DNA of 64,000 nucleotides from Peptococcaceae bacterium. Lineage in GTDB: Bacteria; Bacillota; Desulfotomaculia; Desulfotomaculales; JACDOK01. The notes beneath the pieces are model-generated. The model was not told the DNA's origin. It did not search any database and saw only the letters and a list, made by a program, of their open reading frames with translations. Numbering within the stretch: the stretch's first letter is position 1; every line of letters starts with the position of its first letter. Both the position numbers and the translations under genes were made by a program. Positions 16,492-64,000 of this stretch are shown here, piece by piece. The stretch lies in the NCBI GenBank assembly GCA_017656185.1, contig JACDOK010000008.1, positions 2,093 to 66,092 of the forward strand, given 5' to 3'.

Positions 16492-16500
16492 GTTGAACGT

Positions 16501-16938: not shown

Positions 16939-17024
16939 TGGTGCCGAAGGTGGGAGTCGAACCCACACTCCACGAGGGAACACGATTTTGAGTCGTGCGC
17001 GTCTGCCAGTTCCGCCACTTCGGC
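16939..17024 (-). tRNA. tRNA-Leu (anticodon CAA), class II with a long variable arm and encoded CCA
   Basis: Minus strand GCCGAAGTGGCGGAACTGGCAGACGCGCACGACTCAAAATCGTGTTCCCTCGTGGAGTGTGGGTTCGACTCCCACCTTCGGCACCA. It shows a 7-bp acceptor stem, the T-loop GGTTCGA(C)TCC and the anticodon loop CT-CAA-AA. Confidence 0.93.
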
Positions 17025-22372: not shown

Positions 22373-22624
22373 TCAACCCCGGATGCTCTCGGTATCATCC
22401 TCACCGGTTCTAATGACACCATGTTTACAATAGATTTCGGCTTTACCCCTTAATTTGATGGCAGCCGTATTTTCCGTAAACTGGGCCACCATTAGTTCAC
22501 CCTTATCAAGTTTTTCGGTATGATGAAATTTGGTATCCCTACCTCGGGTAAGTCCCATTATGGTAACACCGTTTTCTAATGCTTTGATAACGATATAATC
22601 GGAATATACCCAGGGTTCAACCAT
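22373..22624 (-). CDS. mtrB: trp RNA-binding attenuation protein (TRAP)
   Basis: [57 protein letters not shown] aligns almost residue for residue with B. subtilis MtrB ([57 protein letters not shown]) as I remember it. The ATG at 22624 has a GGGGG SD 8 nt upstream; the track start 22633 is GTG. Confidence 0.88.
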
Positions 22625-22655
22625 AATCTGCACCCCCTAGTAAAATTTCAGAGGT

Positions 22656-29236: not shown

Positions 29237-29380
29237 AATAATCCCCCTAAATGTGTTGCTGTGTTTTTAAATAAAGCTATTTTTGCTGGGAATAATAAAA
29301 AAAGTATTGCGTTTCTTTTATTATTTGTAGCTTATGTGTGAAAATTACCGAAAATTGAGGGAGATAAGGAGGCAAAGGCA

Positions 29381-30118: not shown

Positions 30119-30121
30119 GAT

Positions 30122-31696: not shown

Positions 31697-31707
31697 CTAA
31701 AAAACAA

Positions 31708-31740
31708 CTGACGAAGCCGGTTTTATCCGTGCTTCGTCAG
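31708..31740. terminator. convergent (bidirectional) terminator hairpin between the GH57 gene and the nucleotidyltransferase gene
   Basis: CTGACGAAGC-13 nt-GCTTCGTCAG. The minus-strand reading is followed by TTGTTTTTT. The plus-strand U-tract is displaced. Confidence 0.7.
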
Positions 31741-31769
31741 TCCAGTAAAAAAATTTTTTGTTCCCCATC

Positions 31770-34232
31770 TTAATCAGAACTACCTACAATATGGTCAATT
31801 TTATCGGCATACATTGCTGTTAGTTCTTCTGCTATTTCCATAGAACTTCCCTCACTAAAAATACGGCACACAGGCTGTTCAGGGTCCGGCAGTACCAAAG
31901 CCCATCCATTGGGATGTATTACTTTGATGCCATCAAGCAACTCCAGTTCGTAACCGCTTTCATCTTCAATTAGTTTTCTGATCACACGCCCCTTATCGTT
32001 CCAGGACACTGGGATTTCTCTTTTAGCAAGATGGAACGAAGGAATTTCGTCCACCAGACTAGATAAATGTACATCCTCCGCAGCTGTAAAAGCCAAAATG
32101 TTAATTAGAGCAGCCAAAGCATCAAAATGCAGGAAAAATTGCGACACATCTTCACTTAGAATTTTGGCTACAAAGTCTTGGGGAGAAGTTTTGGTTCGAA
32201 TAACTTTTGCTTTATATTTGGCCGCTAAATCTTCAATTGCGCTGGGAGCAGTGACAGGAACCACCACCCGCCCGCTCCCCGCCTTAAGAATGTACAATGC
32301 TATAAGGGCCGTAAGCATATCATCTTTAATAACGCGCCCCTGGTCGTCAACCAAGATGAGATGCTCTGCGTTGCCGTCCAGTATCGCGCAGCCGTAAGCT
32401 TTTGTTTCCTTAATCTTTTGTTGAATCAGGGGCAGTAACTTGCGATACTCCGACCAGCGTCGGGGCCGTTCACTCGGGGACAAATCGTCAAGGTCCAGTG
32501 TTTGCAGCCCTAAGCCTCTGACAACAGCTGGTATTATCTTTTCTAAGTTAGGATGATCGTAAAGTAAATACAGTGTGTAATTCGCCTGCCGTATCGCATT
32601 AGCATTAATATTTCTTAATAAGGTTTGTACATAACGTTCCGCCGTATCCGCAATCAAACTTGCATTCTTTATTTGTTGCATTTCTGCCCGGGCGAAGTCT
32701 TCCTGTGCCATCAGATTTTCAATTTTGCGCTCCATACCTCTGGCAATATTATTTCCCTGGTCATCGGTAAAAATTAACACCGCTTTGTCCGGATCTTGTG
32801 CCGACAGTTTTACGTGTACACCACCTTTACACTGATACGACCTTACTGCGAAACGGTGCATAGGCGTGGTCGTAACCGACTCAAAATTAAGGGCTTCGAC
32901 TCCCGCGCTTTGCAAACCGCTGATTATGGCTTTTTTAAGCATGCGCGTCGCCGGATCGACCGCGCTGCTGATACCCACCTGGTGGGCGCGGCCTATCACA
33001 GAACCAAACGTCGCCGCTACCCGGGCACAAAATTCAGGTGTAAGCTCCACATTAACAAGTCCTGCTATTCCTTCACCACCAAAAATATGTTTGCGTTGAC
33101 GTGTTCCCCAGACCAAACTTTGGCTAACTGTCGTACCCGTTTCCACGAGTTTATGTGGCCATAGTTTCACTTCCGGTTTCAAGATACCGCGTTCTTTAAT
33201 AATAGAGTCATCTCCGACCACTGCTCCTTCATAGATGCCGGCGTTAGCTTGTACCTGTACCCTACTGCCTAAAACGGCCCCCCGTAATGATGCTCCGGTA
33301 CCGATATAAACGTGATCCCAGGTAACGCTGCGCTTTATGGAAGCCCCGCCTTGTACAATGGTCCCGCTCCCGATAATACTAAAAGGCTCGATATGGACTC
33401 GGGGACCAATTTGGACATTATCGCCAATCAGTACGGGACCGGATATGGTACAAGTTCTGTCCATTGATACATTTTCGCCAACCCAAACACCGGGAGCGTA
33501 TTGTTTAGCTGAAATCGAAAGGTGTACCTTGCCCGCAAGAGCATCATATTGCGCTTGCAAATACTGGGATATATTCCCGATATCGCACCAGTACCCTTCC
33601 AAAACAACACCAAACAGGGGTGCGCCTTCACGCAGCAAAAGGGGAAACAGGTCTTTAGAAAAATCAAAAAACTGGCCTGTGGCAAAATACTTTAGTACTT
33701 CTGGTTCCAATACATAAATACCCGTGTTGACGGTATCGCTAAAAACCTCGCTCCAGCTCGGTTTTTCCAGAAAACGCCTAATTCTCCCTCCCGTTTCCGT
33801 AATAACAACCCCGTACTCGAGAGGAGAATTAACCCTTGTTAATACCAGTGTAGCAATAGCGCCCTTTTCCTTGTGAAACCTTATTGCTTTTCCAATGTCC
33901 AGGTCGGTTAATGCATCACCACTTATCACTACAAACGACTCATTAAGAAAAGACTCGGCATTCTTGACACTGCCCGCCGTACCTAAAGGACTTTCTTCAA
34001 TAAAGTAGTACATATGAACACCATACTCGCTGCCGTTCCCGAAGTGATCCTTGATCACATTCGATAAATACTGCAGCGTAACGCCGATATCCCTTATCCC
34101 GTACTTTTTTAAAAGGTCAATAGCATAAGACATCACCGGCCGGTTTAGTATCGGAACCATTGGTTTAGGACGATTACAGGTGAGAGGTCTCAAGCGAGAC
34201 CCTTTCCCACCAGCCATAATTATTGCCTTCAT
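31770..34232 (-). CDS. sugar-1-phosphate nucleotidyltransferase fused to a left-handed beta-helix and a phosphohexomutase-like C-terminal domain
   Basis: MKAIIMAGGKGSRLRPLT start at 34232. The track's 57-codon extension would overlap the upstream GT4 gene. The C-terminal half has the PGM/PMM fold pattern but altered motifs (see findings). Confidence 0.85.
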   Translation of the reverse strand: MKAIIMAGGKGSRLRPLTCNRPKPMVPILNRPVMSYAIDLLKKYGIRDIGVTLQYLSNVIKDHFGNGSEYGVHMYYFIEESPLGTAGSVKNAESFLNESFVVISGDALTDLDIGKAIRFHKEKGAIATLVLTRVNSPLEYGVVITETGGRIRRFLEKPSWSEVFSDTVNTGIYVLEPEVLKYFATGQFFDFSKDLFPLLLREGAPLFGVVLEGYWCDIGNISQYLQAQYDALAGKVHLSISAKQYAPGVWVGENVSMDRTCTISGPVLIGDNVQIGPRVHIEPFSIIGSGTIVQGGASIKRSVTWDHVYIGTGASLRGAVLGSRVQVQANAGIYEGAVVGDDSIIKERGILKPEVKLWPHKLVETGTTVSQSLVWGTRQRKHIFGGEGIAGLVNVELTPEFCARVAATFGSVIGRAHQVGISSAVDPATRMLKKAIISGLQSAGVEALNFESVTTTPMHRFAVRSYQCKGGVHVKLSAQDPDKAVLIFTDDQGNNIARGMERKIENLMAQEDFARAEMQQIKNASLIADTAERYVQTLLRNINANAIRQANYTLYLLYDHPNLEKIIPAVVRGLGLQTLDLDDLSPSERPRRWSEYRKLLPLIQQKIKETKAYGCAILDGNAEHLILVDDQGRVIKDDMLTALIALYILKAGSGRVVVPVTAPSAIEDLAAKYKAKVIRTKTSPQDFVAKILSEDVSQFFLHFDALAALINILAFTAAEDVHLSSLVDEIPSFHLAKREIPVSWNDKGRVIRKLIEDESGYELELLDGIKVIHPNGWALVLPDPEQPVCRIFSEGSSMEIAEELTAMYADKIDHIVGSSD

Positions 34233-34260
34233 AACTAACGCCTCCGGATCCTTGCAAGAT

Positions 34261-35508
34261 CTAATGTCTGGCAAATAATTCATAAACTTTACCGAAGAAA
34301 TGCCCTCTGCGGTTATATTTTGCCGGCCAATCAACTTTTTGGCGTGATTGCCATACTTTGCTATATACCCCCTTGGTCTGCCGGGCAATTCTCTGCCAGT
34401 CAAATTGAGTTACTACTTTACGATAGGCCCTTTCCTGCATTAACCTGGCCGCAGAAGGATTGGTAAGAACAGCGACAATTTTATTGGCTAGATCTTCACT
34501 GTCTCCCGGATGAACCTTTAGACCATCCACCCCGTCATCCACAATTTCCTTGAGGCCACCGGTATCCGATACAATGACCGGCGTTTTGGCGGCCATAGCC
34601 TCCAAGGCCACAATACCAAATGGTTCGTATAAGCTGGGAAATACCGCAACATCAGCCCAATCATAGAGCGAATTCCGAATATCGTCCCCGATATAACCGG
34701 TAAAATATACCCGTTGCGCGATACCCAGCCGAAAAGCTAAATCCTTGAGGTTGTTTTCATAAGGCCCCTTACCGCTTATTATGAACTTGGTATCGGGATG
34801 ACGCTGTAAAACCTTGGGGACAGCTTCAAGAAGCACCTGAACACCCTTTTCACGAACCAACCTGCCGACAAAGAATACTATCTTCTCGTTTGGGGCTGCG
34901 AAAGAATTGCGTTGTGCCTGCTCCGATTTAGCGGTAAAATTGGCCGGATCAACACCGTTATAGATAATTTGCAACTTATCGTCCGGTACTTGAAAAATAT
35001 ACTTTACTTCCCCATGCATATAACGGCTGCACACAATTATCTGCCAAGATTCGTAACAGAGCCACCATTCTACGCTGCTGATATAATTCTGGACGGGATT
35101 ATGGAGACCGTTATGGCGGCCAAATTCAGTCGCGTGAATGGTCGTTACCAATGGCAGCCGGTAAGCGTGTTTCAATACCCGTGCCGCATAAGCTACCAGC
35201 CAGTCGTGGGCATGAACAACCTGAACATCACCAATATCTTTCAGTACCTGAATAGCACTTTCTACTAATGACAGGTTAAACTGTATTACCCATGTCAAAA
35301 AATCCGGTGTTGAAACCGGGCTAGGGGCAACACGATATATGTAAACGCCGTTGTTATCCTCATAATCGGCTGCCCCCCTTGCTCCACTGGTAATAAGATG
35401 AACCTCAACTCCTTCCTTTGCAAGCGCAGCAGTCAGGTCATAAACATGTTGAGCCAGTCCCCCTACGCTCTTCGGAGGGTATTCCCATGAAAGCATCAAG
35501 ACCCGCAA
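34261..35508 (-). CDS. GT4-family glycosyltransferase (glycogen/alpha-glucan synthase-like)
   Basis: (M)RVLMLSWEYPPKSVGGLAQHV N-terminus and the C-terminal EPFGIVALEAMA motif. The likely start is TTG at 35508 after a GAGGGGGA SD; the track ORF extends to 35625. Confidence 0.85.
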   Translation of the reverse strand: MRVLMLSWEYPPKSVGGLAQHVYDLTAALAKEGVEVHLITSGARGAADYEDNNGVYIYRVAPSPVSTPDFLTWVIQFNLSLVESAIQVLKDIGDVQVVHAHDWLVAYAARVLKHAYRLPLVTTIHATEFGRHNGLHNPVQNYISSVEWWLCYESWQIIVCSRYMHGEVKYIFQVPDDKLQIIYNGVDPANFTAKSEQAQRNSFAAPNEKIVFFVGRLVREKGVQVLLEAVPKVLQRHPDTKFIISGKGPYENNLKDLAFRLGIAQRVYFTGYIGDDIRNSLYDWADVAVFPSLYEPFGIVALEAMAAKTPVIVSDTGGLKEIVDDGVDGLKVHPGDSEDLANKIVAVLTNPSAARLMQERAYRKVVTQFDWQRIARQTKGVYSKVWQSRQKVDWPAKYNRRGHFFGKVYELFARH

Positions 35509-35629
35509 GTTCCATCCGTCCCCCTCTATTAATATCCTTAAATTGTTATTATCCCTTGTAAGGTAAGGATTTATGACTTGAAGCAATAAAAAACCCCACC
35601 TTTTTCGTAAAGGTGGAGTTTTCAAAACC

Positions 35630-36010
35630 CTAATGTCCTACAATGGAACCGTGATGGATGGTCCAACTCCAGTTCATACCATTATTATTATCCCAGTTGC
35701 CGGCACTGTCGTGGAAACAGAAGTTCAGACGTTCCTCTTCCATAGGCGCTTCGAAAGTTTTCACCCATCCCCAGCCGGTCCGGGACATTTTCATGCTTTT
35801 AACATTATGCCACCTATCGGAGGGACCAAATCCTAAATGAAGATAGACCTGATCAGCCCCACTGGTAGATAAAAGGCCGTTATAGAATACCGTAATCTCT
35901 TCTCCTGCGGTTATGGGAGTAGGGTCAACCACTACTCCACCGGGATAGTCGGCCTCGTGATAACGACGAAGCCTTTCTGCTCCATAGCCGAAATTGGTAT
36001 GATGTTCCAC
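35630..36010 (-). CDS. starch/glycogen-binding module protein (CBM25/CBM53-like)
   Basis: ITVFYNG...VYLHLGF...W...LNFCFHDSAGNWDNNNGMNW fits the CBM25/53 pattern. The GTG at 36010 follows an AAGGAGGTG SD; the track start 36058 has no SD. Confidence 0.65.
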   Translation of the reverse strand: MEHHTNFGYGAERLRRYHEADYPGGVVVDPTPITAGEEITVFYNGLLSTSGADQVYLHLGFGPSDRWHNVKSMKMSRTGWGWVKTFEAPMEEERLNFCFHDSAGNWDNNNGMNWSWTIHHGSIVGH

Positions 36011-36079
36011 TTCAACACCTCCTTGAGTCTTTATCTCAGAACTAGTATGGTCACCCAAGAAGGTGCTGATGTGAGGAAA

Positions 36080-43379: not shown

Positions 43380-45086
43380 CTACTGAGTGGCAAGCTTCTC
43401 GGCGGCGCGCCGCCGTAGTTCCCGCGCATGTTGACGTACAGCGGAGGTTATACCGCGTCCGCCCAACATCCTGGTAAGCTCGTCCAACCGTCCCTCATCA
43501 TCAAGTGTTTCAATACGTGTATAGGTACGTTTACCATCATTCTCCTTGGTTATTTTCAGATGCTGGTTGGCAAAACAGGCGATTTGAGGAGCGTGGGTCA
43601 CGCAGATAACCTGACGTTTTTGGCCAATAGCAGCCATCTTTTCGGCCACCGCATTTAGCACACGACCTCCAATACCGGCATCAACCTCGTCAAAAATCAA
43701 GGTCGGCACCTCATCAACGGAAGACAGCAAGTTTTTAAAAGCCAGCATTACCCGGGAAAGCTCGCCACCGGATGCAATCTTAGCCAAAGGCCTGGCGGGT
43801 TCACCGGGATTAGGAGAAAATAGAAAAGCAATGTCCTCCGCGCCCCGCGGGTGGGGACCCTCTACCGGTCGAAAATCCACTTGAAATTGCACGTTTGCAA
43901 CTTCCAAATCGCGCAGTTCCCGTACAACTCCTTTGATTAACGCACGTGCCACCTCGCGGCGTATACGGCTCAGACCGGCAGCCGCCTCCCTCCAGTCCTT
44001 TTCCAACTGGGTTAAGCGTTCTTTGAGTTGGGAAACCTTCTCATCGCTGTACATTAACTCCTCGCGCTCACTGGCTATTTTGTCCCGGTAACGCAGAATA
44101 TCTTCAATGCTGTCGCCGTATTTTTGCTGCAATTTACCGATCAAATCCAATCTTTCCTCAACGTAGTTGAGCCGTGAAGCATCAAAATCGGTTCTTTCAA
44201 CAATATCCGCTATGTCGCGGGCAACTTCCTGTACCTGGTATATTACGGCATCCAGCCGTTCTGTAAGATCACTGCCGCCTTCGATAAAGGAAGCAATTTG
44301 CCTTAAGCTATCCACAGCTTGTCCTAGTAGATCCATTGCCGACATTTGCTCGTGCATGCCGCCGTACAGAACTGCGTAACTCTCCCCGGCATAACGAGCA
44401 ATGTTTTCGGCATTAACTAAAAACAAACGTTCTTTTTCCAGCTCTTCGTCTTCTCCGGGTTGTAACCGGGCGGCATCAATCTCTTCTATTTGAAACTTCA
44501 AAGCATCAAGACGCCTGGCCCTCTCTTTTTCATCTCCTATTAGTTTTTGGTATTCCTTTCTTGCCCGGATCCAGTTCTCATATAACATGGCCGTCTTTTT
44601 AAGATAATCTCCCAACCGGGCTCCACCGAAAGCGTCCAGAAACCGGCAATGGTTTTCTTCCTTTAGAAGAGACTGCTGTTCACCCTGCCCGTGAAAATCA
44701 ACCAGCTTCTGACCTACCTCCCGGTACAAGGCAAGGGTACAGGTACGACCGTTAATACGATAAATGCTTCTTCCGCTGCGGTACAGGTTCCGTCCCAAAA
44801 TTAAAAACCCTTCCTGTAATGGAATGTCATTTTGCTCTAACCAGTTGACTAAGTGGGGATATTGTTCAATATCAAAAACGGCTTCCAATATGGCTTGGTC
44901 AGCACCTGTCCGCACATAATCCGCCGAAGCCCGCCGGCCTAAGACTACCTGTACGGCATCAATCACGAGTGATTTTCCGGTACCCGTCTCTCCCGTTAGC
45001 ACATTAAATCCCTGCGTAAATTCTATAACCAGATCGTCAAGCAAGGCGAAATCTTTCACCGCCAGTCTGCAAAGCATCTCCCTCAC
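43380..45086 (-). CDS. recN: DNA repair protein RecN
   Basis: 568 aa with the Walker A GETGTGKS, a long coiled coil and the C-terminal ASGGELSRVMLA signature. The start is either GTG at 45086 (overlapping the argR stop) or ATG at 45077. Confidence 0.94.
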   Translation of the reverse strand: MREMLCRLAVKDFALLDDLVIEFTQGFNVLTGETGTGKSLVIDAVQVVLGRRASADYVRTGADQAILEAVFDIEQYPHLVNWLEQNDIPLQEGFLILGRNLYRSGRSIYRINGRTCTLALYREVGQKLVDFHGQGEQQSLLKEENHCRFLDAFGGARLGDYLKKTAMLYENWIRARKEYQKLIGDEKERARRLDALKFQIEEIDAARLQPGEDEELEKERLFLVNAENIARYAGESYAVLYGGMHEQMSAMDLLGQAVDSLRQIASFIEGGSDLTERLDAVIYQVQEVARDIADIVERTDFDASRLNYVEERLDLIGKLQQKYGDSIEDILRYRDKIASEREELMYSDEKVSQLKERLTQLEKDWREAAAGLSRIRREVARALIKGVVRELRDLEVANVQFQVDFRPVEGPHPRGAEDIAFLFSPNPGEPARPLAKIASGGELSRVMLAFKNLLSSVDEVPTLIFDEVDAGIGGRVLNAVAEKMAAIGQKRQVICVTHAPQIACFANQHLKITKENDGKRTYTRIETLDDEGRLDELTRMLGGRGITSAVRQHARELRRRAAEKLATQ

Positions 45087-45535
45087 CCTTCGATAAAAGA
45101 TCGGAGTCGTGCCGCAATCTCCCGTGCTTTTTCTTTGGGCTTAATAACAACCAGTATGGTATCGTCACCCGCAACACTACCCAAAATTTGGGGCCACCTA
45201 GCCCCGTCAAGCCCTGAGGCTACCCCCTGAGCCGCACCCGGCAGGGTCTTTACAAGCACTAAATTATCACTGTAATCCACATCCCAGACATAATCCCTGA
45301 AAAGGCGCCGTAATCGATCTTCACCAACACGGGAAACTGACTCGCCCGGTATCAGGTAGCGCACCCTATGACCGTCGGAAGCCTTGACCAATCCCATTTC
45401 TTTAATATCGCGGGACACCGTAGCTTGTGTTACGTTAAATCCCGACCGGCGTAAAGCTTCTGTCAATTCACCCTGGGTGCTAATCACCTGCTCCCTTATT
45501 AACTGGCGTATCATTTGTTGCCTTCTGGCTTTCAA
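45083..45535 (-). CDS. argR: arginine repressor
   Basis: KARRQQMIRQLIREQVISTQGELTEAL parallels the AhrC N-terminus, with the C-terminal GDDTILV motif. The TTG at 45535 follows an AAGGTGG SD and gives 150 aa; the track start is 45559. Confidence 0.88.
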   Translation of the reverse strand: MKARRQQMIRQLIREQVISTQGELTEALRRSGFNVTQATVSRDIKEMGLVKASDGHRVRYLIPGESVSRVGEDRLRRLFRDYVWDVDYSDNLVLVKTLPGAAQGVASGLDGARWPQILGSVAGDDTILVVIKPKEKAREIAARLRSFIEG

Positions 45536-46121
45536 CGGTAGAACCCACCTTTTCCACAATAATCAAAAACGGGGCCGCCGCGGAAGAATTGTGGGCTGTT
45601 AACCTGAGTACAGCATAGTGCTGTCCCGGCAAAACGCGACAGAAATCATCCACTCCTTGGGCCTCAACTTTACCACCCTCGTGCCCGGGGTAATTGAGGA
45701 TACTGAGCCTGCCTCCGTGCCGAAGCAGAGACAGTGCCGCTCTTAACGCTTTTAAGGTGGTTGGAAGGTTTGTAATGATACTTTTATCACTACCCGGGAG
45801 GTATCCCAAGTTAAACATGCATGCATCAACGGGTTCCTTAACGTATCGCGCCATATGTTCATGGCCATCCCAAATAAGTCGTACTTGCTCCAAAGCTTGG
45901 TGTTTTCGCAAAAGATCACTGGTCAACTGCAAAGCCGACTTCTGAACGTCGAAGGCATAAACCGTACCCTGAGACCCTACTCGTTGTGCCAAAAACAAGG
46001 TATCATGACCCTTTCCCGCCGTAGCATCAATGGCTGTGCCACCTATGGAGAGAACATCACCAATGAACCGCTGGGCCAGATCAACCATCCGGGTAATGTT
46101 GCTTTTAACCATCATAAACAT
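45480..46121 (-). CDS. class I SAM-dependent methyltransferase (YtqB-like putative RNA methylase)
   Basis: 213 aa with AIDATAGKGHDTLFLA (SAM-binding motif I) and VYAFDVQ. Confidence 0.7.
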   Translation of the reverse strand: MFMMVKSNITRMVDLAQRFIGDVLSIGGTAIDATAGKGHDTLFLAQRVGSQGTVYAFDVQKSALQLTSDLLRKHQALEQVRLIWDGHEHMARYVKEPVDACMFNLGYLPGSDKSIITNLPTTLKALRAALSLLRHGGRLSILNYPGHEGGKVEAQGVDDFCRVLPGQHYAVLRLTAHNSSAAAPFLIIVEKVGSTVESQKATNDTPVNKGAGD

Positions 46122-47783: not shown

Positions 47784-49685
47784 CTACCTCTGTTTTAAAG
47801 CCAGCCTGAAATTGGCACGTCGCAATTCAGTCTGAACGGTTTGTGCCACGCCGTCTACGCTCAGTCCATATTTCTCCCGCAGGATATCTGGTGCACCGTG
47901 TTCCACAAAAACATCCGGGATCCCTATCATTTTGATTTTGACATTACTAATTCCCTTAGCGACTAGAAGTTCCAATACGGCACTACCGAAACCTCCGCTT
48001 AATACATTTTCCTCAAGGGTAAATAATTGGCCGGTCTTCTTGATACTATTGATAATAGTTTCAGCATCCAAAGGCTTGACAAAACGCGCATTAATAACGG
48101 TCAGGTCATAGCCTTTTTCGGCTAAATGCTCTGCCACCTTTACTGCAACGGGAACCATGTTGCCGATGGCGAGAAGGGTAGCATCCTTACCACTACGGAG
48201 TACCTCAGCCTGACCAATCGGTAAAGGTTTTAGTTCCTGGTCAAGCGGACATCCCGTACCTGCACCTCTGGGATAACGTATGGCCATCGGCCCTTGGTAC
48301 TCGACGGCTGTCTTAAGCATGTGCTGCAGCTCATTTTCATCTTTAGGAGCAGCTACCACCAGGTTAGGAATCATTCGTAGATATGAATAGTCAAATAGAC
48401 CATGATGGGTTGGACCGTCTTGACCTACAATACCGCCACGATCAAGCGCAAACGTCACGGGCAGTTTTTGCAGGCAGACATCGTGCAAAATCTGGTCAAA
48501 GGCCCGCTGAAGAAACGTTGAATATATCGCTACCACAGGCTTATAACCCTCTGCGGCTAATCCTGCTGCGAAAGTTACCGCGTGCTGCTCAGCTATTCCC
48601 ACATCAAAAAACCGGTCAGGAAATCGTTTTGCAAAACTTGTTAATCCGGTGCCATCGGTCATGGCCGCCGTAATAGCCGCAATGTGATCGTCTTCTTCCG
48701 CCAAATTAACTATAGTCCGTCCGAAAACCTGAGTATAGGATACTCGTGAACTTTTTTTATTTTTACCATTAAAAACATCAAAGGGGCCCACGCCGTGAAA
48801 TTTACCCGGATCTTTCTCCGCTGCTTCATAACCCTTTCCTTTCTGCGTTAAAGCATGCACTAAAACCGGTTCGTCGGCGGCTTTCGCTTGGTTTAAGACC
48901 TCGATTAAATCCTTAATACTATGACCATTAACGGGCCCCAGATAAGTAAATCCCAGTTCTTCAAAAAACATTCCCGGTACCACTAAGTATTTAAAACTGT
49001 CCTTAACCCTTTCAACCCACCTAAGCATCCGCGGCCCAATGCTGGGCACCCGGCGCAGTAAACTCTCAAATTCGTCCTTTCCACGGGTATACATTGGATC
49101 GGTGCGCAGGCGGGACAAATATCCGGAGAGGGCCCCTACATTGGGTGCAATTGACATTTCGTTATCATTGAGGACTACGATCAAGCGTTTTTTGAGGTGG
49201 CCCGCGTGATCTAAGGCTTCAAAAGCCATTCCCCCGGTCATGGCCCCATCGCCTATCACAGCCACTACCGAGTGTTTGTGGCCTGACAGATCACGGGCCA
49301 ACGCCATTCCCAGAGCCGCAGATATGGAGGTACTGCTGTGTCCCGTACCAAAAGGATCAAAAGGACTCTCCCACCGACAGGGAAAGCCGCTCAAACCTCC
49401 AAACTGTCTTAAAGAATCGAAACACTCCCGGCGCCCGGTGATAATCTTATGGGCATAACATTGATGACCAACGTCCCAGATAATGCGATCTGCCGGAGCA
49501 TCAAAGACCCGGTGTAAAGCCAAAGTCAATTCAACAACCCCTAAACTAGGCGCTAGGTGCCCACCGGTATGGCTGACCGTTTGGATAATAAATTCTCTAA
49601 TCTCGCCGGCAAGCTGTTTTAATTCATCCAGTGATAAAGACTTTAGGTCTTTAGGACTATTAATTTTGTTTAAAATGTTTCCCAA
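47784..49685 (-). CDS. dxs: 1-deoxy-D-xylulose-5-phosphate synthase
   Basis: 633 aa with [14 protein letters not shown] and the ThDP motif [14 protein letters not shown]...NDN. Confidence 0.96.
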
Positions 49686-49703: not shown

Positions 49704-50297
49704 CTATTGTTTTACACGACGCTTTTTATTATGGTTTATTTGTTTCCTGCCCCAGGAAAACATTTTCTCCCAGCCGGCCATCAGTTTACCGACAGCAAAA
49801 ACAATATCGTGTGAACGCTGTACCGCTACCTTCTTCCCCCAGGCTTTACCTGCTACAGTTAAGGCTGCGATAAGAGAAGTAATGGCTATATTTAGCATGA
49901 ATATTTTGAAATTAGGATACATCTTTATCAGCTGTGCGATAAGAGAAATACCTAAGGCACCTGCCACAATACCGGCGATATCGCCGATAACGTCCATGGT
50001 AATATTGGCTACCTTGGGGGTGTTCCGGACTAGATAAACAGCGTGCGAAGCCCCAAACACTCTTTTTGCTGCTAAAGCGTGCAATGGAGCGTGACGTGCC
50101 GCAGTAGTCGCCGTACCTACAATATCAAATACTATTCCCACAGTAATTACTAGTACAAGAAAAATAAGTGATAAGTATAAGTTATCCAACCGGTGTATAA
50201 TTATTTCGGCTAAAAAGGCAAAAACGGCGGTGATAACCAGGGTTAAAACGCCTATAAGTAATACGTGTCCCCTAAAACCACGGGAGTTCCCGTTCAA
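49704..50297 (-). CDS. oapA: OLE-associated membrane protein OapA-like (about four predicted TM helices)
   Basis: 197 aa, ~21 kDa, hydrophobic with a basic tail. TTG start with a GAGGTG SD immediately 3' of the large ncRNA and upstream of dxs. That is the position reported for oapA in OLE loci (from memory). Confidence 0.65.
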   Translation of the reverse strand: MNGNSRGFRGHVLLIGVLTLVITAVFAFLAEIIIHRLDNLYLSLIFLVLVITVGIVFDIVGTATTAARHAPLHALAAKRVFGASHAVYLVRNTPKVANITMDVIGDIAGIVAGALGISLIAQLIKMYPNFKIFMLNIAITSLIAALTVAGKAWGKKVAVQRSHDIVFAVGKLMAGWEKMFSWGRKQINHNKKRRVKQ

Positions 50298-50334
50298 AAG
50301 CTACACCTCACGCCGTTAGGAGGAAAGGCAAGCA

Positions 50335-50918
50335 GGGCAAGTGACAGCAGACCGGATAAACATTGTAGCTTAGGTCCAGCAGGTTTTCCCAAGTAGTCAC
50401 CTGCCGTCGCCGCGCAGGCGGTTTCCCTTTGAGACTACTCCCGGCCCGTTGCCGAAACCGGAGCTGGATTGCCACTTAGACTACACCGTAATCCCCGATC
50501 TGCCTCTTAAGAACAGCCTAGGGGTTTTCCCCGACAGAGCCCTCTTTTCCTAGCCTCTTTTGCAGTAATGGTTTCAACCAGTGTCTCGTAAGAGAGGGCC
50601 CTCTCGTACGAAACACCTTTTATGGTATCCACCATTACCACTCAAGGCAGGCTACACTGCACGCAGCTTTTCCCCACGTACAGGTTTAATCCCAAGCCAT
50701 AGATTGCTTTACGGCATCCACGCACTTGGGTCTCCGCGGTAACAGGGTCAAGCACCCACATGCCTTTGTGGGGTGCCCTATCACCTTAACTCCCAGTACC
50801 AGCCCCCGACTGGGCGTCGACAGCCAGCACCAGGAACTTCATCGATGTGCCCTTAGCGGATTTTTAGGCCCGCTTTCGGAAAAAAGGACTTCTGACTAGG
50901 ATACTGCGTCACTTGCCC
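50335..50918 (-). ncRNA. ole: OLE (ornate, large, extremophilic) RNA
   Basis: The 704-nt gap (50298-51001) has no ORF of 60 codons or more in any frame. A terminal helix, GGGCAAGUGAC(-)GCAG at 50918-50904, pairs with CUGCUGUCACUUGCCC at 50350-50335. Many internal helices are visible, e.g. GUGUUUCGUACGAGAGGG/CCCUCUCUUACGAGACAC and GCACCC(C)ACA/UGUGGGUGC. The ispA-[RNA]-membrane protein-dxs context is canonical for OLE. Confidence 0.75.
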
Positions 50919-51001
50919 AAGTGGTTTACTATGCGTAAATAATCATAGCATATACTACGATCTTAAATCAATTACCGTCAGCTACATCCATCGTTAATAG
51001 T

Positions 51002-51892
51002 TCAAAATTTCCTTGTCTTGCAAAAATACGCTGCGTGTCGCAAAAAATCAGCTTCCGATCCGAAATCAACCAGGGCGGTTATAGCACTGTCCAAGCATTT
51101 GTGAGCACGCACCCTGGATTCATCCACCCCGAAGAGAGAAACATAAGTAGTTTTAGCGTTACGGGCGTCGCTGCCAACTGTCTTCCCGGTCTTTTCAGGA
51201 GATCCTTCCACATCAAGAATGTCGTCAATGATCTGGAAGGCCAGACCGAAGTGCTCAGCAAAGGTCGTTAATTTACGCAGCTTATCCTCATCGGCTCCAC
51301 CTAAAATAGCTCCGGTACGTACACAAGCACGAAACAAGGCACCCGTTTTGGTTCTATGAATATAATCTAGCGTTTTTTCGTCTGCTTCCTTGGGAAGCAA
51401 CGTAAGATCAATGACCTGTCCCCCGATAAGGCCCATTGTTCCGCAAGCGGCAGCGACTTCCTGCACTACTTGAAGGACTTTCGCAGGCGGTATAGAAAAC
51501 TCCGACCCTGCCTGGCTTAACAGGTCAAATCCCAAAGTCAGCAAGGCATCCCCGACCAAAACAGCAATGCCTTCACCGAAAACGCGATGAGTGGTGGCCC
51601 GGCCACGGCGAAGATCACTGTTATCCATCGCCGGTAAATCATCATGGACCAAAGAATAAGTGTGAATCAACTCTATTGCACACGCCGCCGGTAAAACGGC
51701 ATTGCTGTCGCCTTTTACCGCTTCTGCAGCAGCAAGCGTCAAGGCCGGGCGAAGCCTTTTGCCACCGGAAAAGACACTATATCGCATAGCACGATGAATT
51801 AATTGAGGGTAAGTATTTTCTCCAGGTAGGTAACGATCAAGGGCACCATTAACAAGATGCGCTTTTTCAGCCAGGGCTGCCAAAAAATCCAC
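51002..51892 (-). CDS. ispA: farnesyl diphosphate synthase (polyprenyl synthetase)
   Basis: 296 aa with the first Asp-rich motif LVHDDLPAMDNSDLRRG and the second, FQIIDDILD. Confidence 0.93.
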   Translation of the reverse strand: MDFLAALAEKAHLVNGALDRYLPGENTYPQLIHRAMRYSVFSGGKRLRPALTLAAAEAVKGDSNAVLPAACAIELIHTYSLVHDDLPAMDNSDLRRGRATTHRVFGEGIAVLVGDALLTLGFDLLSQAGSEFSIPPAKVLQVVQEVAAACGTMGLIGGQVIDLTLLPKEADEKTLDYIHRTKTGALFRACVRTGAILGGADEDKLRKLTTFAEHFGLAFQIIDDILDVEGSPEKTGKTVGSDARNAKTTYVSLFGVDESRVRAHKCLDSAITALVDFGSEADFLRHAAYFCKTRKF

Positions 51893-55330: not shown

Positions 55331-55549
55331 TCACCTGTGTTTAGAAATTAATTTATTCCATAATTTGCTCCAATCTACCTGCTCATCAATACGCCTACCT
55401 ATAAAATAGCCTATAACTGCTGAAAGAAATACAAAAAGGGCTTTCCAAAAACCGTAGGTAATCGCAAACCACCCGAAAATAAGCCCTACCACAATGCCGC
55501 CAATTTTCCCAGAATGCTGTTCCAAAAATTCCAACCACCATGGATACAT
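55331..55549 (-). CDS. DUF2273 small integral membrane protein
   Basis: 72 aa with two TM helices (GKIGGIVVGLIFGWFAI...). Member of the asp23-amaP-DUF2273 cluster. Confidence 0.7.
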   Translation of the reverse strand: MYPWWLEFLEQHSGKIGGIVVGLIFGWFAITYGFWKALFVFLSAVIGYFIGRRIDEQVDWSKLWNKLISKHR

Positions 55550-55561
55550 GGGTTCACCTCA

Positions 55562-56098
55562 CTACTCGACACGCGGCTTGGTTGTTACGATGTTTTCCAC
55601 CGCTATCTTTATAGTGTCTATCCTAATACCAATCACATCCAATATTTTATCCTGCACTTCTTGTTGAATCTCTTTCGACATTTCCGGAATACTCAAATCG
55701 GGGGCTACCAGCATCTTTATCTCAAGACCGATATTTTCAGCATCATATAATACCTTTGGCTTAACCTCTTTTATCCCGGGTTTCTGCGACACCACTTTGT
55801 GAACCAGGCTCTCAACTGCCTGTAATGAAACCTTTACCTGTCCTAATGCATTTTCCTCCACAATGGCATGCTTGACGGGTTTCTGCTGCTTCCGGTTGAA
55901 AACACTAGCCCAAAGCAGTCTAATACCAACCAAAAACAGAAGGCCTGTCCCAGTCAAGAGCGCTTGTTTTTGTTGTAAAATGTCATCAGCTAAACGTATA
56001 ACCGGATCCCAACCCAGATATACTAACACGGAAAACACCAAAGCAGCTGACACAGCTAAACTATATATTGCCACCAGACCACGGTCAAAGGTCCCCAT
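55562..56098 (-). CDS. amaP: alkaline shock response membrane anchor protein AmaP-like
   Basis: 178 aa with two N-terminal TM helices then a soluble domain. Directly downstream of asp23. Confidence 0.6.
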   Translation of the reverse strand: MGTFDRGLVAIYSLAVSAALVFSVLVYLGWDPVIRLADDILQQKQALLTGTGLLFLVGIRLLWASVFNRKQQKPVKHAIVEENALGQVKVSLQAVESLVHKVVSQKPGIKEVKPKVLYDAENIGLEIKMLVAPDLSIPEMSKEIQQEVQDKILDVIGIRIDTIKIAVENIVTTKPRVE

Positions 56099-56131
56099 GT
56101 GCTGCCTCCTAAGCCCAACGCACCAGTACGC

Positions 56132-56521
56132 CTAATCACCTTTCTTTTCTTCCTTAGGAAAAGCTACTCCCTGCACATGCACATTTACTTCCAGTACCGC
56201 CAAACCGGTCATATCCTCAACAGTCCTCTTCACATTGGATTGGACCTCACCGGCAACATCAGGGATTCTTACTCCATACTCGGTAATAACATAAAGGTCT
56301 ATTCTCGCTTCTTTTTCCCCTACTTCGACCTTAACACCTTTGGACAAGTTTTTTCGTCCCAGTATCTCGGCAATCCCACCGGGTAAACCGCCGCTCATTC
56401 CTACTATTCCAGGAATTTCGGTGGCCGCCAACCCGGCAATGGTGGACACCACTTCATTGGCAATACGAATGGTGCCCAACTTGCCTTGCGTTTCTGATAC
56501 CGCCGTATTCCGGTAATCCAT
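56132..56521 (-). CDS. Asp23/Gls24-family envelope stress protein
   Basis: GTIRIANEVVSTIAGLAATEIPGIVGM is the Asp23 signature. The ATG at 56521 is better spaced from the GGGAGG SD than the track start 56530. Confidence 0.88.
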   Translation of the reverse strand: MDYRNTAVSETQGKLGTIRIANEVVSTIAGLAATEIPGIVGMSGGLPGGIAEILGRKNLSKGVKVEVGEKEARIDLYVITEYGVRIPDVAGEVQSNVKRTVEDMTGLAVLEVNVHVQGVAFPKEEKKGD

Positions 56522-56549
56522 AAATACCATTACCTCCCGGTTTGTTTCG

Positions 56550-59968: not shown

Positions 59969-60571
59969 TTACTTGTTGCCGATAATTATAATATTTTCAG
60001 GTAATAAATCAGAAACGTGTGCTACTAGATTTATAATAGAAGTTTCCTGCTCCATACTAAGCGTTTCGGGCACCACTACCGTTATCGCGTTATTCTCCAG
60101 AAATACTATTGCATCCTTAAATCCCTTAGCTCGCAAAATATTTTCCAGCTTAACCTCTTTCTCTATTATCTCGCTTATTTCCAATAAACGGTTCTGGGCC
60201 CTAGCCCGGGCATCATCACCGGCCTGGGGGTCTTCGATAATTTCCTGCAGATATTCCACTTGCCTGTCACGTGCACGTTCTCTTTCCATGCGATACTCGA
60301 CAAAAAACTCCGTTTCCCGCTCACTGGGTTTCAGAGATGTTTCCAAAGTTTCGGGTGCGAATACTTCATTATCGGGTAATGGTTCAGTGGAAGATGTTTG
60401 ATCCGGTGACGGACACGGTTTTTGTTCGGATACATCAGGAGTATTTGTTGGTGCAACGCCGGCAGATTGCTCCAAGACCTTCCCGGCTTGCCATACGATA
60501 ACAATAGCTACCGCGACGACTATTAAACAGGAACTCCAAAGTACCTTCCGGTTAACTGTGATACATTTCAT
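59969..60571 (-). CDS. spoIIIAH: stage III sporulation protein AH
   Basis: 200 aa with an N-terminal TM anchor and a C-terminal YscJ/FliF-like domain. Last gene of the spoIIIA operon order. Confidence 0.85.
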   Translation of the reverse strand: MKCITVNRKVLWSSCLIVVAVAIVIVWQAGKVLEQSAGVAPTNTPDVSEQKPCPSPDQTSSTEPLPDNEVFAPETLETSLKPSERETEFFVEYRMERERARDRQVEYLQEIIEDPQAGDDARARAQNRLLEISEIIEKEVKLENILRAKGFKDAIVFLENNAITVVVPETLSMEQETSIINLVAHVSDLLPENIIIIGNK

Positions 60572-60588
60572 ATATCCCTACACCCCCT

Positions 60589-61203
60589 TTAAAATCTTCT
60601 AGGCATTACCACAATTTTATGAGCCTCGACGCCCAACCCAATTTGGATGGCGTTAAATATGCGGCTTTTAATTTTTGGTGACCGGGCACCTTCAGCCACC
60701 ACTAACACACCTTTTACCCGGGGTGCTATTTCTCTTTCCAGTACCGGTACTTCATAACCTTCGCGTGAGATGACTACCATCTCGTTACTGGTACTATTCT
60801 CATTGATCGTCCGCCCGCCGCCTTCCCCGGGGCGCGATTCGTCGGTAAAACGCTGGTCTACATCCTGGTTTCTGGCATACTCCGTAACACTGGAACCTTC
60901 TAATCTTACGGTAACATCGACATCCCCCACACCATCAATCTGCCGCAGCATGTTTTCTAACTGTTCAGAAAGATACTGTTCCTCGGCCTGGATGCGCGAT
61001 AAATCTCCTGAATTTTCCGGCTTATTACCTTTGGTGTTATATGATGCTGTACTTGCCCCATCAATAGGCGGTGGTCCCGAAGAACCGCCCCCGCTGCCAA
61101 AACTACCAAAAACCAAAAGCGCGACCCCGAGCAACCCGATCAGGAGAAGTACCAAATTCTGCTGCTTTTTGCCCTTTAACAAGGGTTCCCACCACGAAGA
61201 CAT
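60589..61203 (-). CDS. spoIIIAG: stage III sporulation protein AG
   Basis: 204 aa with an N-terminal TM helix, a Gly-rich linker and a C-terminal ring-building motif domain (GVLVVAEGA). Position in the operon fits. Confidence 0.88.
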   Translation of the reverse strand: MSSWWEPLLKGKKQQNLVLLLIGLLGVALLVFGSFGSGGGSSGPPPIDGASTASYNTKGNKPENSGDLSRIQAEEQYLSEQLENMLRQIDGVGDVDVTVRLEGSSVTEYARNQDVDQRFTDESRPGEGGGRTINENSTSNEMVVISREGYEVPVLEREIAPRVKGVLVVAEGARSPKIKSRIFNAIQIGLGVEAHKIVVMPRRF

Positions 61204-61215
61204 CCTGTCACTCCC

Positions 61216-61791
61216 CTAACGATATAGGATCTTAACCTGTTCGGCTTGAAGATTATAAAAGTCTGCAACCGTCTCCTTCAGCCTGTCGGCAACTTCAGGT
61301 TGGACCGCCGGTCCCACCTCCCCGCTGACCGCAAGCTCATCCCCTCCTGGTTGAGCACGATCAATATTGATGATAATTTCCTCTATATTTCCGAAAGCAC
61401 CGCCCTGGGAACCCTTAGCGATTTTGACATCTACGTCAGTTACCTCAATCTCAGGGTTGAGCCGGGTCAAAGCCTTGATTTGTTTAGCCAATCCCGTTTT
61501 ATAATGATCCTCTACCAGGGCCTGGTTCTGTTCCCAAAGATTCTTACCGTCGCGCAGAATATCGCTTGAAGTTCGTACAGCTTCGTTTTCAATGGAAAGC
61601 ACTTCAAAATCCATCCCCCAAGGATTACCCCAGTAACCCGTTACGGCCTGCAGTACTGAGACAATTACCAGAAGCCCCAGTACCATCCGTACGTACCTGC
61701 GCATATCGCTTTCCGGGAGCAGCAGTTCCAACAGCACCGCAAGAATTGCCAAAATAACCAGTTCGCGCACCAAGGTCTGAACTGTTTCCAA
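61216..61791 (-). CDS. spoIIIAF: stage III sporulation protein AF
   Basis: 191 aa with two N-terminal TM helices. Position between AE and AG. Confidence 0.85.
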   Translation of the reverse strand: METVQTLVRELVILAILAVLLELLLPESDMRRYVRMVLGLLVIVSVLQAVTGYWGNPWGMDFEVLSIENEAVRTSSDILRDGKNLWEQNQALVEDHYKTGLAKQIKALTRLNPEIEVTDVDVKIAKGSQGGAFGNIEEIIINIDRAQPGGDELAVSGEVGPAVQPEVADRLKETVADFYNLQAEQVKILYR

Positions 61792-61803
61792 GGCCGAACC
61801 TCC

Positions 61804-62979
61804 TCAGCGCAGCATCACAGTTAAATTTCCCATGCCGGATATGATCGCCAGGGCAAAAAAGAATAGAAGCCCGGTGGTAGCCACCACCGCAAAAACAGCT
61901 ACCATACTGTTTCCCAAGGAATTTAGGCAGTTCGACAAGTTGGTCTCACCCACAGGCTGCACCAGTGCTGAGGCCAACTTATAAATAATGACCAGGGCCA
62001 TAATCTTAATCAAAGGGAACAGGGCCATCAGAAAAATGATGAGAAGACCGGCCAAACCCACAGCGTTCTTTACCAGCAGGGAAGATCCAATAACGGCTTC
62101 CATAGAGTCGGAAAACAGCTTACCGACAATCGGCAAAAATGTTTGCGTAGCGAATTTGGCTGTACGAAAGGTAACCCCTTCGGTTACAGCACCTGCCACA
62201 CCCTGAATGGTCAGCAATCCAAGAAAAGCCGTGGAGCAGACGCCCATTATACCAAGCCCCACATTGCGTAGCAGATCTCCAAGTCTTGATATGGAAAAAC
62301 CTGAAGCAAAATGACTGGCCATACCCAGAATGGCCGAAAAGAAAACCAACGGAAAAACGATATTCTTGACGATCAACCCGGAAGCATTAAGAACGGTCAG
62401 AATGACCGGATGGAACAGGCCTGCACTGGCTATGCCTCCCACTGCGCACAAAAGAACCAGCAGAACAGGCAGCATAGCGTGCATAAAGTCCACCATGTTA
62501 TCCACGGCCTCACGACCGGCCTGAAGGGCAACCGTAAAAGAACCGAGGGCCACGGTAATTAAAACCAGATAGACGGCCATTTGGGCCAGTTTTGCGGCAC
62601 TCGCCTTTTCAAACGCGGTTGCCACGTTATTAAGCACGGCACAGATTACAGCCAAAACAACGAGTTTTCCCAACAAATGAGCGTTAGCAACCACCTCTTG
62701 GAAAAGATACTTCAAAAGCGCGTTAACAAAATCACGCGGGTGATAGCCCATTTCGCCCTTGGCTAAAGAAATCACCAGGTCTTTGAAGTTAAGATTAGGT
62801 ATCGCCTGTCCAATTTCTCGATTGAGCAGATCTACATTTTTTTCAACCTGGTTCAGGTCAATTTGATGTAAAGTGTCCTCCGGTTGGATCGCTGGTAAAT
62901 TGGATGCCTCACCAGCGATACACACTTGGGGCAGCAGTATTAACGTAAAAATGATAAGCCCAATAATTCTTCTGCTCAA
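61804..62979 (-). CDS. spoIIIAE: stage III sporulation protein AE
   Basis: 391 aa with a signal peptide plus a polytopic permease-like body. Position in the operon fits. Confidence 0.9.
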   Translation of the reverse strand: MSRRIIGLIIFTLILLPQVCIAGEASNLPAIQPEDTLHQIDLNQVEKNVDLLNREIGQAIPNLNFKDLVISLAKGEMGYHPRDFVNALLKYLFQEVVANAHLLGKLVVLAVICAVLNNVATAFEKASAAKLAQMAVYLVLITVALGSFTVALQAGREAVDNMVDFMHAMLPVLLVLLCAVGGIASAGLFHPVILTVLNASGLIVKNIVFPLVFFSAILGMASHFASGFSISRLGDLLRNVGLGIMGVCSTAFLGLLTIQGVAGAVTEGVTFRTAKFATQTFLPIVGKLFSDSMEAVIGSSLLVKNAVGLAGLLIIFLMALFPLIKIMALVIIYKLASALVQPVGETNLSNCLNSLGNSMVAVFAVVATTGLLFFFALAIISGMGNLTVMLR

Positions 62980-62989
62980 CTTACTCCCC

Positions 62990-63376
62990 CTATGAAAGTA
63001 TTTTCATCAGGGTATCAAGGACGGCCATAACGATAGGTACTGCAAGAACCATGATTAAGATTTTGGCCGCAAACTCGATTTTGGCTCCCAGAGCTCCTTC
63101 CCCGGCATCACGGCATATTTGCGCTCCAAAATCGGCAATATAGGCAATACCAATGATCTTCAAAATCGCCCCCAAGTAAATAACATTGACATTGGCGCGA
63201 GAAGCCAAATCAGTTAAGACATTAATGACGGCGTCAATCTTGTCCAACACCGCCAGGAATATTACTACCCCTGCTACAACACTCAGGAGCAAGGCAATTT
63301 CGGGTTTTTGTTGTCGTAAAATCAACGCTATAACAGTAGCAATGAAAGCAAAACCGACATATTGAAGGATTTCCAC
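62990..63376 (-). CDS. spoIIIAD: stage III sporulation protein AD
   Basis: 128 aa with four TM helices. MEILQYVGFAFIATVIALILRQ is typical of SpoIIIAD. Confidence 0.9.
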   Translation of the reverse strand: MEILQYVGFAFIATVIALILRQQKPEIALLLSVVAGVVIFLAVLDKIDAVINVLTDLASRANVNVIYLGAILKIIGIAYIADFGAQICRDAGEGALGAKIEFAAKILIMVLAVPIVMAVLDTLMKILS

Positions 63377-63391
63377 GCTCCCTTCACCTGC

Positions 63392-63589
63392 CTAAAACAG
63401 TTTAAAAACCGTTTTAATTTCAGTGAACAGATCATTAATAAGCCCGACAACCCAAAAGATGACGACAATAAATCCGACTACAACAGCCCAAAAAGCATAA
63501 TCTTCCTTACCGGCCTGTTTTAACACGGTGTGAATTGCAGCTATGAGCAACCCAACCCCGGCGATCTTGAAAATCAGATCAATATCCAA
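63392..63589 (-). CDS. spoIIIAC: stage III sporulation protein AC
   Basis: TTG at 63589 after an AAGGGGGG SD gives 65 aa, (M)DIDLIFKIAGVGLLIAAIHTVLKQAGKEDYAFW..., parallel to B. subtilis SpoIIIAC. The track's longer ORF overlaps spoIIIAB. Confidence 0.88.
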   Translation of the reverse strand: MDIDLIFKIAGVGLLIAAIHTVLKQAGKEDYAFWAVVVGFIVVIFWVVGLINDLFTEIKTVFKLF

Positions 63590-63603
63590 TGCTGTTGCCC
63601 CCC

Positions 63604-64000
63604 TTAAATTAATAAGAGAACTACGGCCGCCCCGGCAAAAAAACCCAGGTATTGCCACAATTTTACATTCTTGCGTGCCTGTTCCTCGGCCTCGGCAGCC
63701 TGAACCCCTAACCTTTCAATGGCCAGCTTCAGATGCTTGGCCTGGTCATTACGGTCCGAAGCCCCCAGTACCGACCCGAGGTTTGCCAATACCGATATAT
63801 CACTGGATCGTAAATGGGACTTGTCCTGGAGCTGATAAAGGGCTCTCTGCCAGGCCTCGTACACGCTCGTGCCGTCCTGAGACCTCAGATCATCCCCGGC
63901 AGTAACAAATAGCGTGGCAATGATCGGGTTGACTCTTTGTGCTACCTGGTGGAGAGCCTCCGGTAGAGGTGTAGCTCCATAGATGATCTCTGTTTCTAAA
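63604..64000 (-). CDS. spoIIIAB: stage III sporulation protein AB, C-terminal ~131 codons; the gene runs off the right edge
   Basis: The frame stays open beyond the track's GTG at 63864. Hand translation upstream gives ...LETEIIYGATPLPEALHQVAQRVNPIIATLF..., matching SpoIIIAB (EAEIMYGHTPL... in B. subtilis). Confidence 0.85.
   Translation of the reverse strand, partial: LETEIIYGATPLPEALHQVAQRVNPIIATLFVTAGDDLRSQDGTSVYEAWQRALYQLQDKSHLRSSDISVLANLGSVLGASDRNDQAKHLKLAIERLGVQAAEAEEQARKNVKLWQYLGFFAGAAVVLLLI

Follow-up and report, generated by a model that had tools for sequence, protein, structure and literature searches.

In a stretch of 64,000 nucleotides (nt) from a Peptococcaceae bacterium (contig JACDOK010000008.1; the whole stretch is called the window here), we analysed a long gap that precedes the gene of a membrane protein, and we conclude with high confidence that this is an ole-oapA locus, whose minus strand carries, between about 50935 and about 50335, the gene of a full-length OLE RNA some 600 nt long. 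Scanned with the covariance model of the Rfam OLE family (RF01071, gathering threshold 50 bits), the minus strand gave a match of 519.5 bits (E = 1.8e-149) at 50928-50325, which spanned model positions 1-616 of 616 and was untruncated. Since this match is decisive, the call of an OLE RNA on the minus strand is firmly positive. The original prediction, which was made by reading the letters, had named an OLE RNA here and had expected such a scan to hit the minus strand at about 50335-50920, and both expectations were borne out. The extent of the match (50325..50928, minus strand) was taken as that of the OLE RNA gene, full-length type. In the same test the OLE RNA of Desulfofundulus australicus scored 518.1 bits, and hence the window OLE is a typical full-length member of the family.

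Among the upper-case consensus nucleotides of the model, which are the strongly conserved ones, 234 of 249 (94%) were identical in the window RNA. Canonical pairing was found for 148 of the 157 model base pairs, and the non-canonical ones are at the tips of hairpins, where the window RNA is shorter than the consensus. The minimum free energy of the minus-strand RNA was -278.7 kcal/mol, compared with -215.5 ± 6.7 kcal/mol for dinucleotide shuffles (z = -9.4), and the length from one end of the closing stem P1 to the other was 584 nt (50918-50335). The element belongs to an already known class that a routine Rfam scan detects, and it is new only in its undescribed host lineage.

Gene neighbourhood and orthologous loci

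The gap at 50298-51001 comprises 704 nt without any open reading frame (ORF) of at least 60 codons in any frame. As had been predicted, it is the longest such stretch in the window; the second longest has 348 nt and holds a cyclic di-AMP (c-di-AMP) riboswitch. Profile searches also agreed with the packed minus-strand operon that the original prediction had drawn around the gap, giving the row nusB, xseA, folD, fchA, xseB, ispA, the gap, a 197-amino-acid (aa) ORF, dxs, tlyA and nadK, which continues beyond nadK with an rRNA methylase, argR, recN and gatCAB. Of these genes, ispA, dxs, xseA/B, nusB, tlyA, nadK and recN are typical of the surroundings in which ole is found. The upstream neighbour of ole, ispA (farnesyl diphosphate synthase; 51002..51892, minus strand), matched NF045485 with 342 bits against a cut-off of 275, and the downstream neighbour of oapA, dxs (47784..49685, minus strand), matched TIGR00204 with 876 bits.

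Two further genes of this neighbourhood have a place in the OLE literature. The argR gene (45083-45559, minus strand) is located five genes downstream of ole, and its product was named in a 2025 review, from unpublished data, as a candidate OLE-binding protein. Upstream of nusB (55331-56530, minus strand) there are an Asp23-family gene that is yqhY-like (56132-56530), a weak second Asp23-like ORF and a DUF2273 membrane protein; yqhY has been listed among the genes most often found near ole.

Homologues of the 197-aa protein were aligned, and the alignment was used to scan one genome per GTDB species, which yielded at least 80 loci. An OLE RNA was found directly upstream of the oapA homologue in 77 of the 80 loci listed, 74 of them by nhmmer with the window RNA as a single-sequence query and 3 by Rfam. 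The latter (L053, L068 and L071) carry shorter variant OLEs of about 480-500 nt with scores of 211-238 bits, which were missed by the single-sequence search and fit variant 1 and variant 2, the forms published for gut-associated lineages. Two of the three remaining listed loci without an OLE match are cut by contig ends. In the third (L022, Peptococcaceae bacterium UBA2264), no OLE was detected by nhmmer or Rfam in the 3 kb upstream of the OapA homologue, and this may be one of the rare cases of oapA lacking ole, a case of ole moved elsewhere, or an artefact of the assembly. Among the 80 loci listed, ispA was located upstream in 59 and dxs downstream in 63. An exact copy of the window OapA is encoded on a contig of 33,667 nt in the Logan assembly of run SRR13776093 (locus L081). 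The OLE gene is broken there by the contig end, 368 nt before oapA, and it is spanned completely by the window.

Base pairing in the family was examined in a 29-sequence MAFFT alignment with the Rfam structure to which P1, P2 and P3 had been added. Standard pairs occupied 83.6% of the cells, compared with 39-49% when the 3' partners were slid by 1-3 columns, and 144 of the 193 pairs changed on both sides. The covariation score was 0.438, against 0.203 ± 0.005 after shuffling, and it was reached by none of the 500 shuffles. In a larger alignment of 70 sequences most helices were 83-100% paired. The values for P7, P8 and the distal part of P9, which are of variable length, were 51-72%, and we attribute them to sequence-based misalignment.

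The same alignments bear on the idea that the gap is a protein-coding region that has decayed or escaped annotation. ORFs of 53-57 codons do occur in it, but the 55-codon sense ORF (50475-50308) was open in only 6 of the 70 orthologues, and column entropy was equal at the three codon positions (1.066, 1.069 and 1.070), indicating no codon periodicity. Conservation in the region tracks base pairing rather than reading frames. A coding region was therefore ruled out by the interrupted ORF and the absence of periodicity, and we regard it as extremely improbable. The original prediction could have failed on three points, and on each of them the result favoured it: the family model matched, the helices covaried in the orthologous loci, and no signature of a translated ORF was seen.

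Stems and loops of the RNA

The helix names used here were assigned by us from comparison of the sequence with the literature, and all the elements in this section lie on the minus strand. The 5' strand of P1, GGGCAAGUGAC (50908..50918), pairs with 50345-50335, and its 3' strand, GUCACUUGCCC (50335..50345), pairs with 50918-50908; relative to the consensus GUGGU/ACCAC, the changes on the two strands are compensatory. This stem is named in the literature (PMC12265935, PMC3413148). Over 70 OLEs its inner 7 bp were 90% paired, compared with 31-65% for slid partners, and its covariation score of 0.56 exceeded the highest value among shuffles, 0.32. Of the 11 pairs of the core, 10 changed on both sides in the 29-sequence alignment, and the variants include GUGAC/GUCAC in the window, GGUGGU/ACCACC in a Bacillus and GGUGGC/GCCACC in Acetobacterium.

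The original prediction had closed the domain with a longer helix. Its 11-bp core is the P1 of the family and covaries, but its 4-bp GCAG/CUGC extension did not hold, being only 58% paired, and both halves sit in better-supported helices. GCAG (50907-50904) pairs with CUGU (50516-50513) within P2 in 97% of cases, and CUGC belongs to GGCAGAUCGGG/UCCGGUCUGCU, a helix with 95% pairing in which 10 of 11 pairs covary.

In P2, the 5' strand GCAGUAUCCUAG (50896..50907) pairs with CUAGGCUGU (50521-50513); the stem was 97% and 99% paired over 70 OLEs and is mostly invariant. It contains a CUAG palindrome. The published OapA sites are palindromes near P2 and P4a (PMC12265935), and CUAG is a candidate for the P2-side contact region. 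A second palindrome, AUCGAU (50841..50846), lies in the P4a region, with 4 of its 6 positions invariant and the other 2 at least 90% conserved in the 29-sequence alignment; it may correspond to the second OapA contact region described in PMC12265935. The two palindromes flank P3.

The P3/P3.1 stem, which has been proposed in the literature to cross the membrane, has its 5' strand (CAG + GUCCUUUUUUCCG) at 50877..50894 and pairs with 50551-50535. By duplex folding it comprises 16 bp in the window, the median of the family being 14 and the range 8-17. Its inner 7 bp were 90% paired with covariation in the 70-sequence alignment; in the 29-sequence MAFFT alignment P3 was 48% paired, with the stem misaligned by insertions and deletions. 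P1, P2 and P3 are absent from the Rfam structure line, yet covariation among the loci collected in this analysis clearly supports them.

The P4 hairpin (50855..50874) carries an A-rich loop, CUAAAAAU (50867-50860), that fits the consensus, and its helix was 97% paired. It is followed by the P5/P5.1 hairpin (50790..50836; loop GCCCA at 50815-50811), whose 20 bp were 94% paired with compensatory changes. In B. halodurans the flanks of P5/P5.1 form a k-turn bound by OapC; the sites of OapB and OapC on OLE RNA have been described in PMC7936274 and PMC9723947. The P6/P6.1 hairpin (50738..50785) has the loop AAAGGCAU (50767-50760) and includes GCACCCCACA/UGUGGGUGC, a helix that the original prediction had listed and that is P6.1 with a local extension.

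The P7 (50730-50691) and P8 (50683-50657) hairpins occupy 50657..50730, and their presence marks the full-length type, as the P7/P8 stems are shortened or lacking in OLE variants 1 and 2 (PMC11332333). The long arm of P9 (50553..50648) ends in a palindromic loop, GGGCCC (50601-50596). An 18-bp hairpin predicted at 50616-50581 proved to be the tip of this arm; 18 bp without a loop could not be kept, since the model gives 15 pairs, one of them a C-U mismatch, around the GGGCCC loop. In the 3' domain (50346..50504) the helices were 83-100% paired. It includes a P13-type hairpin (50461-50441) with a GCAA tetraloop and a single bulged U, as described for the OapB site (PMC7936274), and a P14.1-type hairpin with a GCGA tetraloop (50419-50399). 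By cryo-electron microscopy (cryo-EM), the contacts within the OLE dimer are the A-rich P4 loop, the P5.1/P6.1 loops and the P9 kissing loop, and the corresponding loop sequences (A-rich P4, GCCCA, GGC-containing and GGCC) are all present in the window RNA.

A predicted CCCAGU/ACUGGG helix was rejected. The 93% pairing that it showed reflects only the near-invariance of its two strands; ACUGGG forms the 3' side of P5, and variation only breaks the predicted pairs. An A in place of G at 50792 is compensated within P5 by a C-to-U change at 50834, and the predicted partner 50814 stays C.

OapA, transcription and function

The oapA gene (49704..50297, minus strand) encodes 197 aa from a TTG start preceded by a Shine-Dalgarno sequence, GAGGTG (50308-50303). 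Four membrane helices are predicted from hydrophobic segments at residues 12-30, 42-60, 103-121 and 132-150, and the last 45 residues form a basic tail with 12 Lys or Arg against 2 Asp or Glu. A DxxxD motif is located at D102-D106, and both Asp residues are invariant in 14 homologues; the residue before the motif is Met in the window OapA, compared with Asn or Gln in the 13 aligned homologues. The search against NCBIfam gave no match for the ORF, and that against Pfam gave a CNNM/DUF21 match of 23.6 bits (cut-off 28.4). Identification of the membrane protein as OapA, as originally predicted, thus agrees with the published features examined here, namely a length of about 200 aa, four helices, DxxxD, a basic tail and sub-threshold similarity to CNNM. 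Among 5.8 billion proteins the nearest relative was 50% identical. An AlphaFold2 model of the protein (pLDDT 79.5) contained long helices, and its top six matches in the PDB were CNNM/CorB/CorC structures, including MtCorB (7M1T, 7M1U) and CorC (7CFG, 7CFF). These fold matches reproduce the published relation between OapA and CorB.

A promoter-like site was found upstream of P1 at 50942..50971 on the minus strand, with the -35 element TTGATT (50971-50966), an 18-nt spacer ending in TG and the -10 element TATGAT (50947-50942). The original prediction had pointed to this TTGATT-18-TATGAT pair. With its context TTGATT-18-TGcTATGAT, it scores 9 of 12 matches plus the TG of an extended -10. The number of promoter-like sites in the region is by itself at chance level (3 found, 3.0 expected). 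Among the 70 related loci, 39 have a promoter-like site at the same position (at least 9 of 12 matches, starting 45-85 nt upstream of the conserved GCAGUAU), 37 of them with the TG extension (TGnTATAAT); a control zone three times as wide gave 2 hits. Transcription would start near 50935. The proximal promoter has been validated in B. halodurans, where the 5' ends are near the start of P1 (PMC3413148). With 39 of 70 loci carrying it, a promoter of the extended -10 type at constant spacing before P1 is common in OLE loci and no peculiarity of the model species.

On the minus strand no terminator-like site was found between ole and oapA, so read-through of ole transcription into oapA is likely, and since P1 lies just 37 nt from the oapA start, the two genes are probably co-transcribed. 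Both features could also be expected if the region were a cis-acting, riboswitch-like leader that controls oapA-dxs and not a stable independent RNA. A structured element masking the ribosome-binding site was looked for in the 37-nt spacer and rejected, as the spacer has no significant structure (z = -0.43). In B. halodurans, moreover, a single RNA species of high stability builds up and acts together with the OapA protein. The region matched no riboswitch family, and a dimer architecture of 600 nt is unlike any leader. We therefore consider a leader very improbable.

The function of the OLE RNA proper can be outlined from other species. Judged by the experimental record for Halalkalibacterium halodurans and by the Clostridium cryo-EM structures, the window RNA would be abundant and stable and would dimerise through the P4, P5.1/P6.1 and P9 loops. 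Dimers of the four-helix OapA would then hold it at the cell membrane, and the particle may help the cell to tolerate short-chain alcohols, cold, excess Mg2+ and poor carbon sources, as recorded for the family. The promoter, RNA stability and alcohol phenotype were reported for the OLE RNA of B. halodurans (PMC3413148), the dimer, the OapA sites and the membrane model in PMC12265935, and the relation of OapA to MpfA/CNNM in PMC11332333. Tentatively, and with somewhat less than even confidence, we propose that OapA is the core of a CNNM/CorB-like divalent-cation transporter, in which the OLE RNA replaces the cytoplasmic regulatory domains (CBS, CorC).

The main rival to this proposal is that the OLE RNA is a ribozyme that catalyses a membrane reaction, with OapA only as its anchor; synthesis of c-di-AMP has been put forward as a published speculation. 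The size and complexity of OLE and its approximately 25% near-invariant nucleotides do resemble large ribozymes (PMC11332333, PMC12265935), and the window RNA keeps 94% of the conserved positions. However, the literature cited here reports catalytic activity for no OLE RNA, the conserved loops can now be given a structural role, that of contacts in the dimer, and both the homology of OapA to CNNM transporters and the anticorrelation of OapA with MpfA point to transport. We judge a ribozyme unlikely.

Several points weigh against our own interpretation. Regulation of transport by OLE is still a hypothesis in the model species as well. The matches of the OapA model to CorB/CorC folds are marginal (E values from 0.008 to 1.1, TM-scores of 0.45-0.56), and the Pfam CNNM match is under its cut-off. 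Neither oapB nor oapC was detected among the window ORFs scanned, a set that leaves out a few ORFs of at least 70 aa at the window ends; three small window ORFs without a Pfam match do not resemble OapB. OapB is carried by about 60% of OLE hosts and OapC by about 45%. Finally, the locus has been read from sequence alone, and expression, localisation and binding are carried over from other species.

The divergent OapA, with Met before DxxxD, and the longer, almost uninterrupted P3/P3.1 might be co-adapted changes in the part proposed to cross the membrane. We see this as a long shot, even less probable than the ribozyme; if true, the RNA and protein of the window would together offer a useful natural variant on which the model of a transmembrane RNA could be tested.

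Host lineage, other features and known systems

The nearest Dxs proteins, at most 73% identical, are those of Desulforudis, Desulfotomaculales metagenome-assembled genomes, Pelotomaculum, Desulfotomaculum and Ammonifex. The host is an undescribed spore-forming relative of Desulforudis and the Desulfotomaculales, and as a member of Bacillota it fits the range of OLE, whose hosts are usually anaerobes or extremophiles of this phylum. The original prediction of a sulfate-reducing spore former stood in its second part. The window contains the sporulation genes spoIIIAC/AD, AE, AF and AH (59969-63658, minus strand) as well as spoVS and ytrH (13546-13806 and 8898-9224, both minus strand), and the presence of OLE has been reported to correlate with sporulation genes. 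The sulfate-reducing part was not supported, with no dsr, apr or sat detected among the window ORFs scanned; the nearest Dxs relatives mix sulfate reducers (Desulforudis, Desulfotomaculum) and a non-sulfate-reducer (Pelotomaculum), and sulfate reduction by the host is plausible. A 204-aa ORF without a Pfam match occupies the position of spoIIIAG (60589-61203).

The c-di-AMP riboswitch (RF00379, 93.4 bits; 10763-10907, minus strand) is located 40 kb from ole, and the OLE literature speculates on c-di-AMP connections. It lies about 147 nt upstream of a 420-aa radical-SAM protein (ORF 9354-10616, minus strand) with a C-terminal domain of the lysine-2,3-aminomutase type, and the riboswitch and the aminomutase may together indicate an osmolyte (beta-lysine) link. 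The window also contains the gene of the tryptophan RNA-binding attenuator protein TRAP (mtrB; 22373-22633, minus strand), between dnaE and accD, and a single tRNA gene, tRNA-Leu (CAA) (16939-17024, minus strand), between RNase Y and a VTT-domain membrane protein. A glycogen/starch cluster at 27254-36058 comprises a GH15 glucoamylase-like protein, a DUF4912 protein with a GH57 branching enzyme on the plus strand, an 877-aa fusion of a nucleotidyl-transferase with a phosphoglucomutase, a GT4/GT5 glycogen synthase-like protein and a 142-aa CBM53 protein. ORFs without a Pfam match were found on the minus strand at 5062-6444 (460 aa), 8148-8375 (75 aa), 8422-8901 (159 aa) and 12204-12473 (89 aa, coiled-coil-like and rich in Glu, Leu and Arg), and on the plus strand at 16352-16825 (157 aa).

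Few bacterial RNAs of unknown biochemical function are as large and as well conserved as OLE, which has recently been proposed to span the membrane. The window does not open the functional question of OLE. It adds a typical full-length OLE with its OapA from an uncultured spore-forming lineage, to which the standard context and the proximal promoter extend.

Compared with other large and elaborately folded non-coding RNAs whose function is unknown or known only in part, such as GOLLD, ROOL, raiA and HEARO, the window RNA has a different gene context and OapA as its partner, and none of these families had an Rfam match in the window. GOLLD and ROOL are known to form homo-oligomers (PMC12286853). 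The membrane domain of OapA has a predicted fold similar to that of MpfA/CorB/CorC, for which the literature reports related Mg2+ phenotypes, but OapA has neither the CBS pair nor the CorC domain, has four and not three membrane helices, carries DxxxD, and by the Pfam threshold falls outside the family. The closest likeness is to full-length OLE RNAs such as those of D. australicus and H. halodurans: the window RNA shares with them every stem from P1 to P9, the 3' domain, the gene order ispA-ole-oapA-dxs and a proximal promoter with an extended -10, and the loops, the CUAG and AUCGAU palindromes, the GNRA tetraloops and the bulged P13-type stem are all in the window. It departs from the OLE consensus in its P1 (GUGAC/GUCAC instead of GUGGU/ACCAC, a compensatory change), in the length of P3/P3.1 (16 bp against a median of 14), in 15 of the 249 conserved positions, and in the shorter P7, P8 and distal P9. 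These are only the differences expected at the species level.

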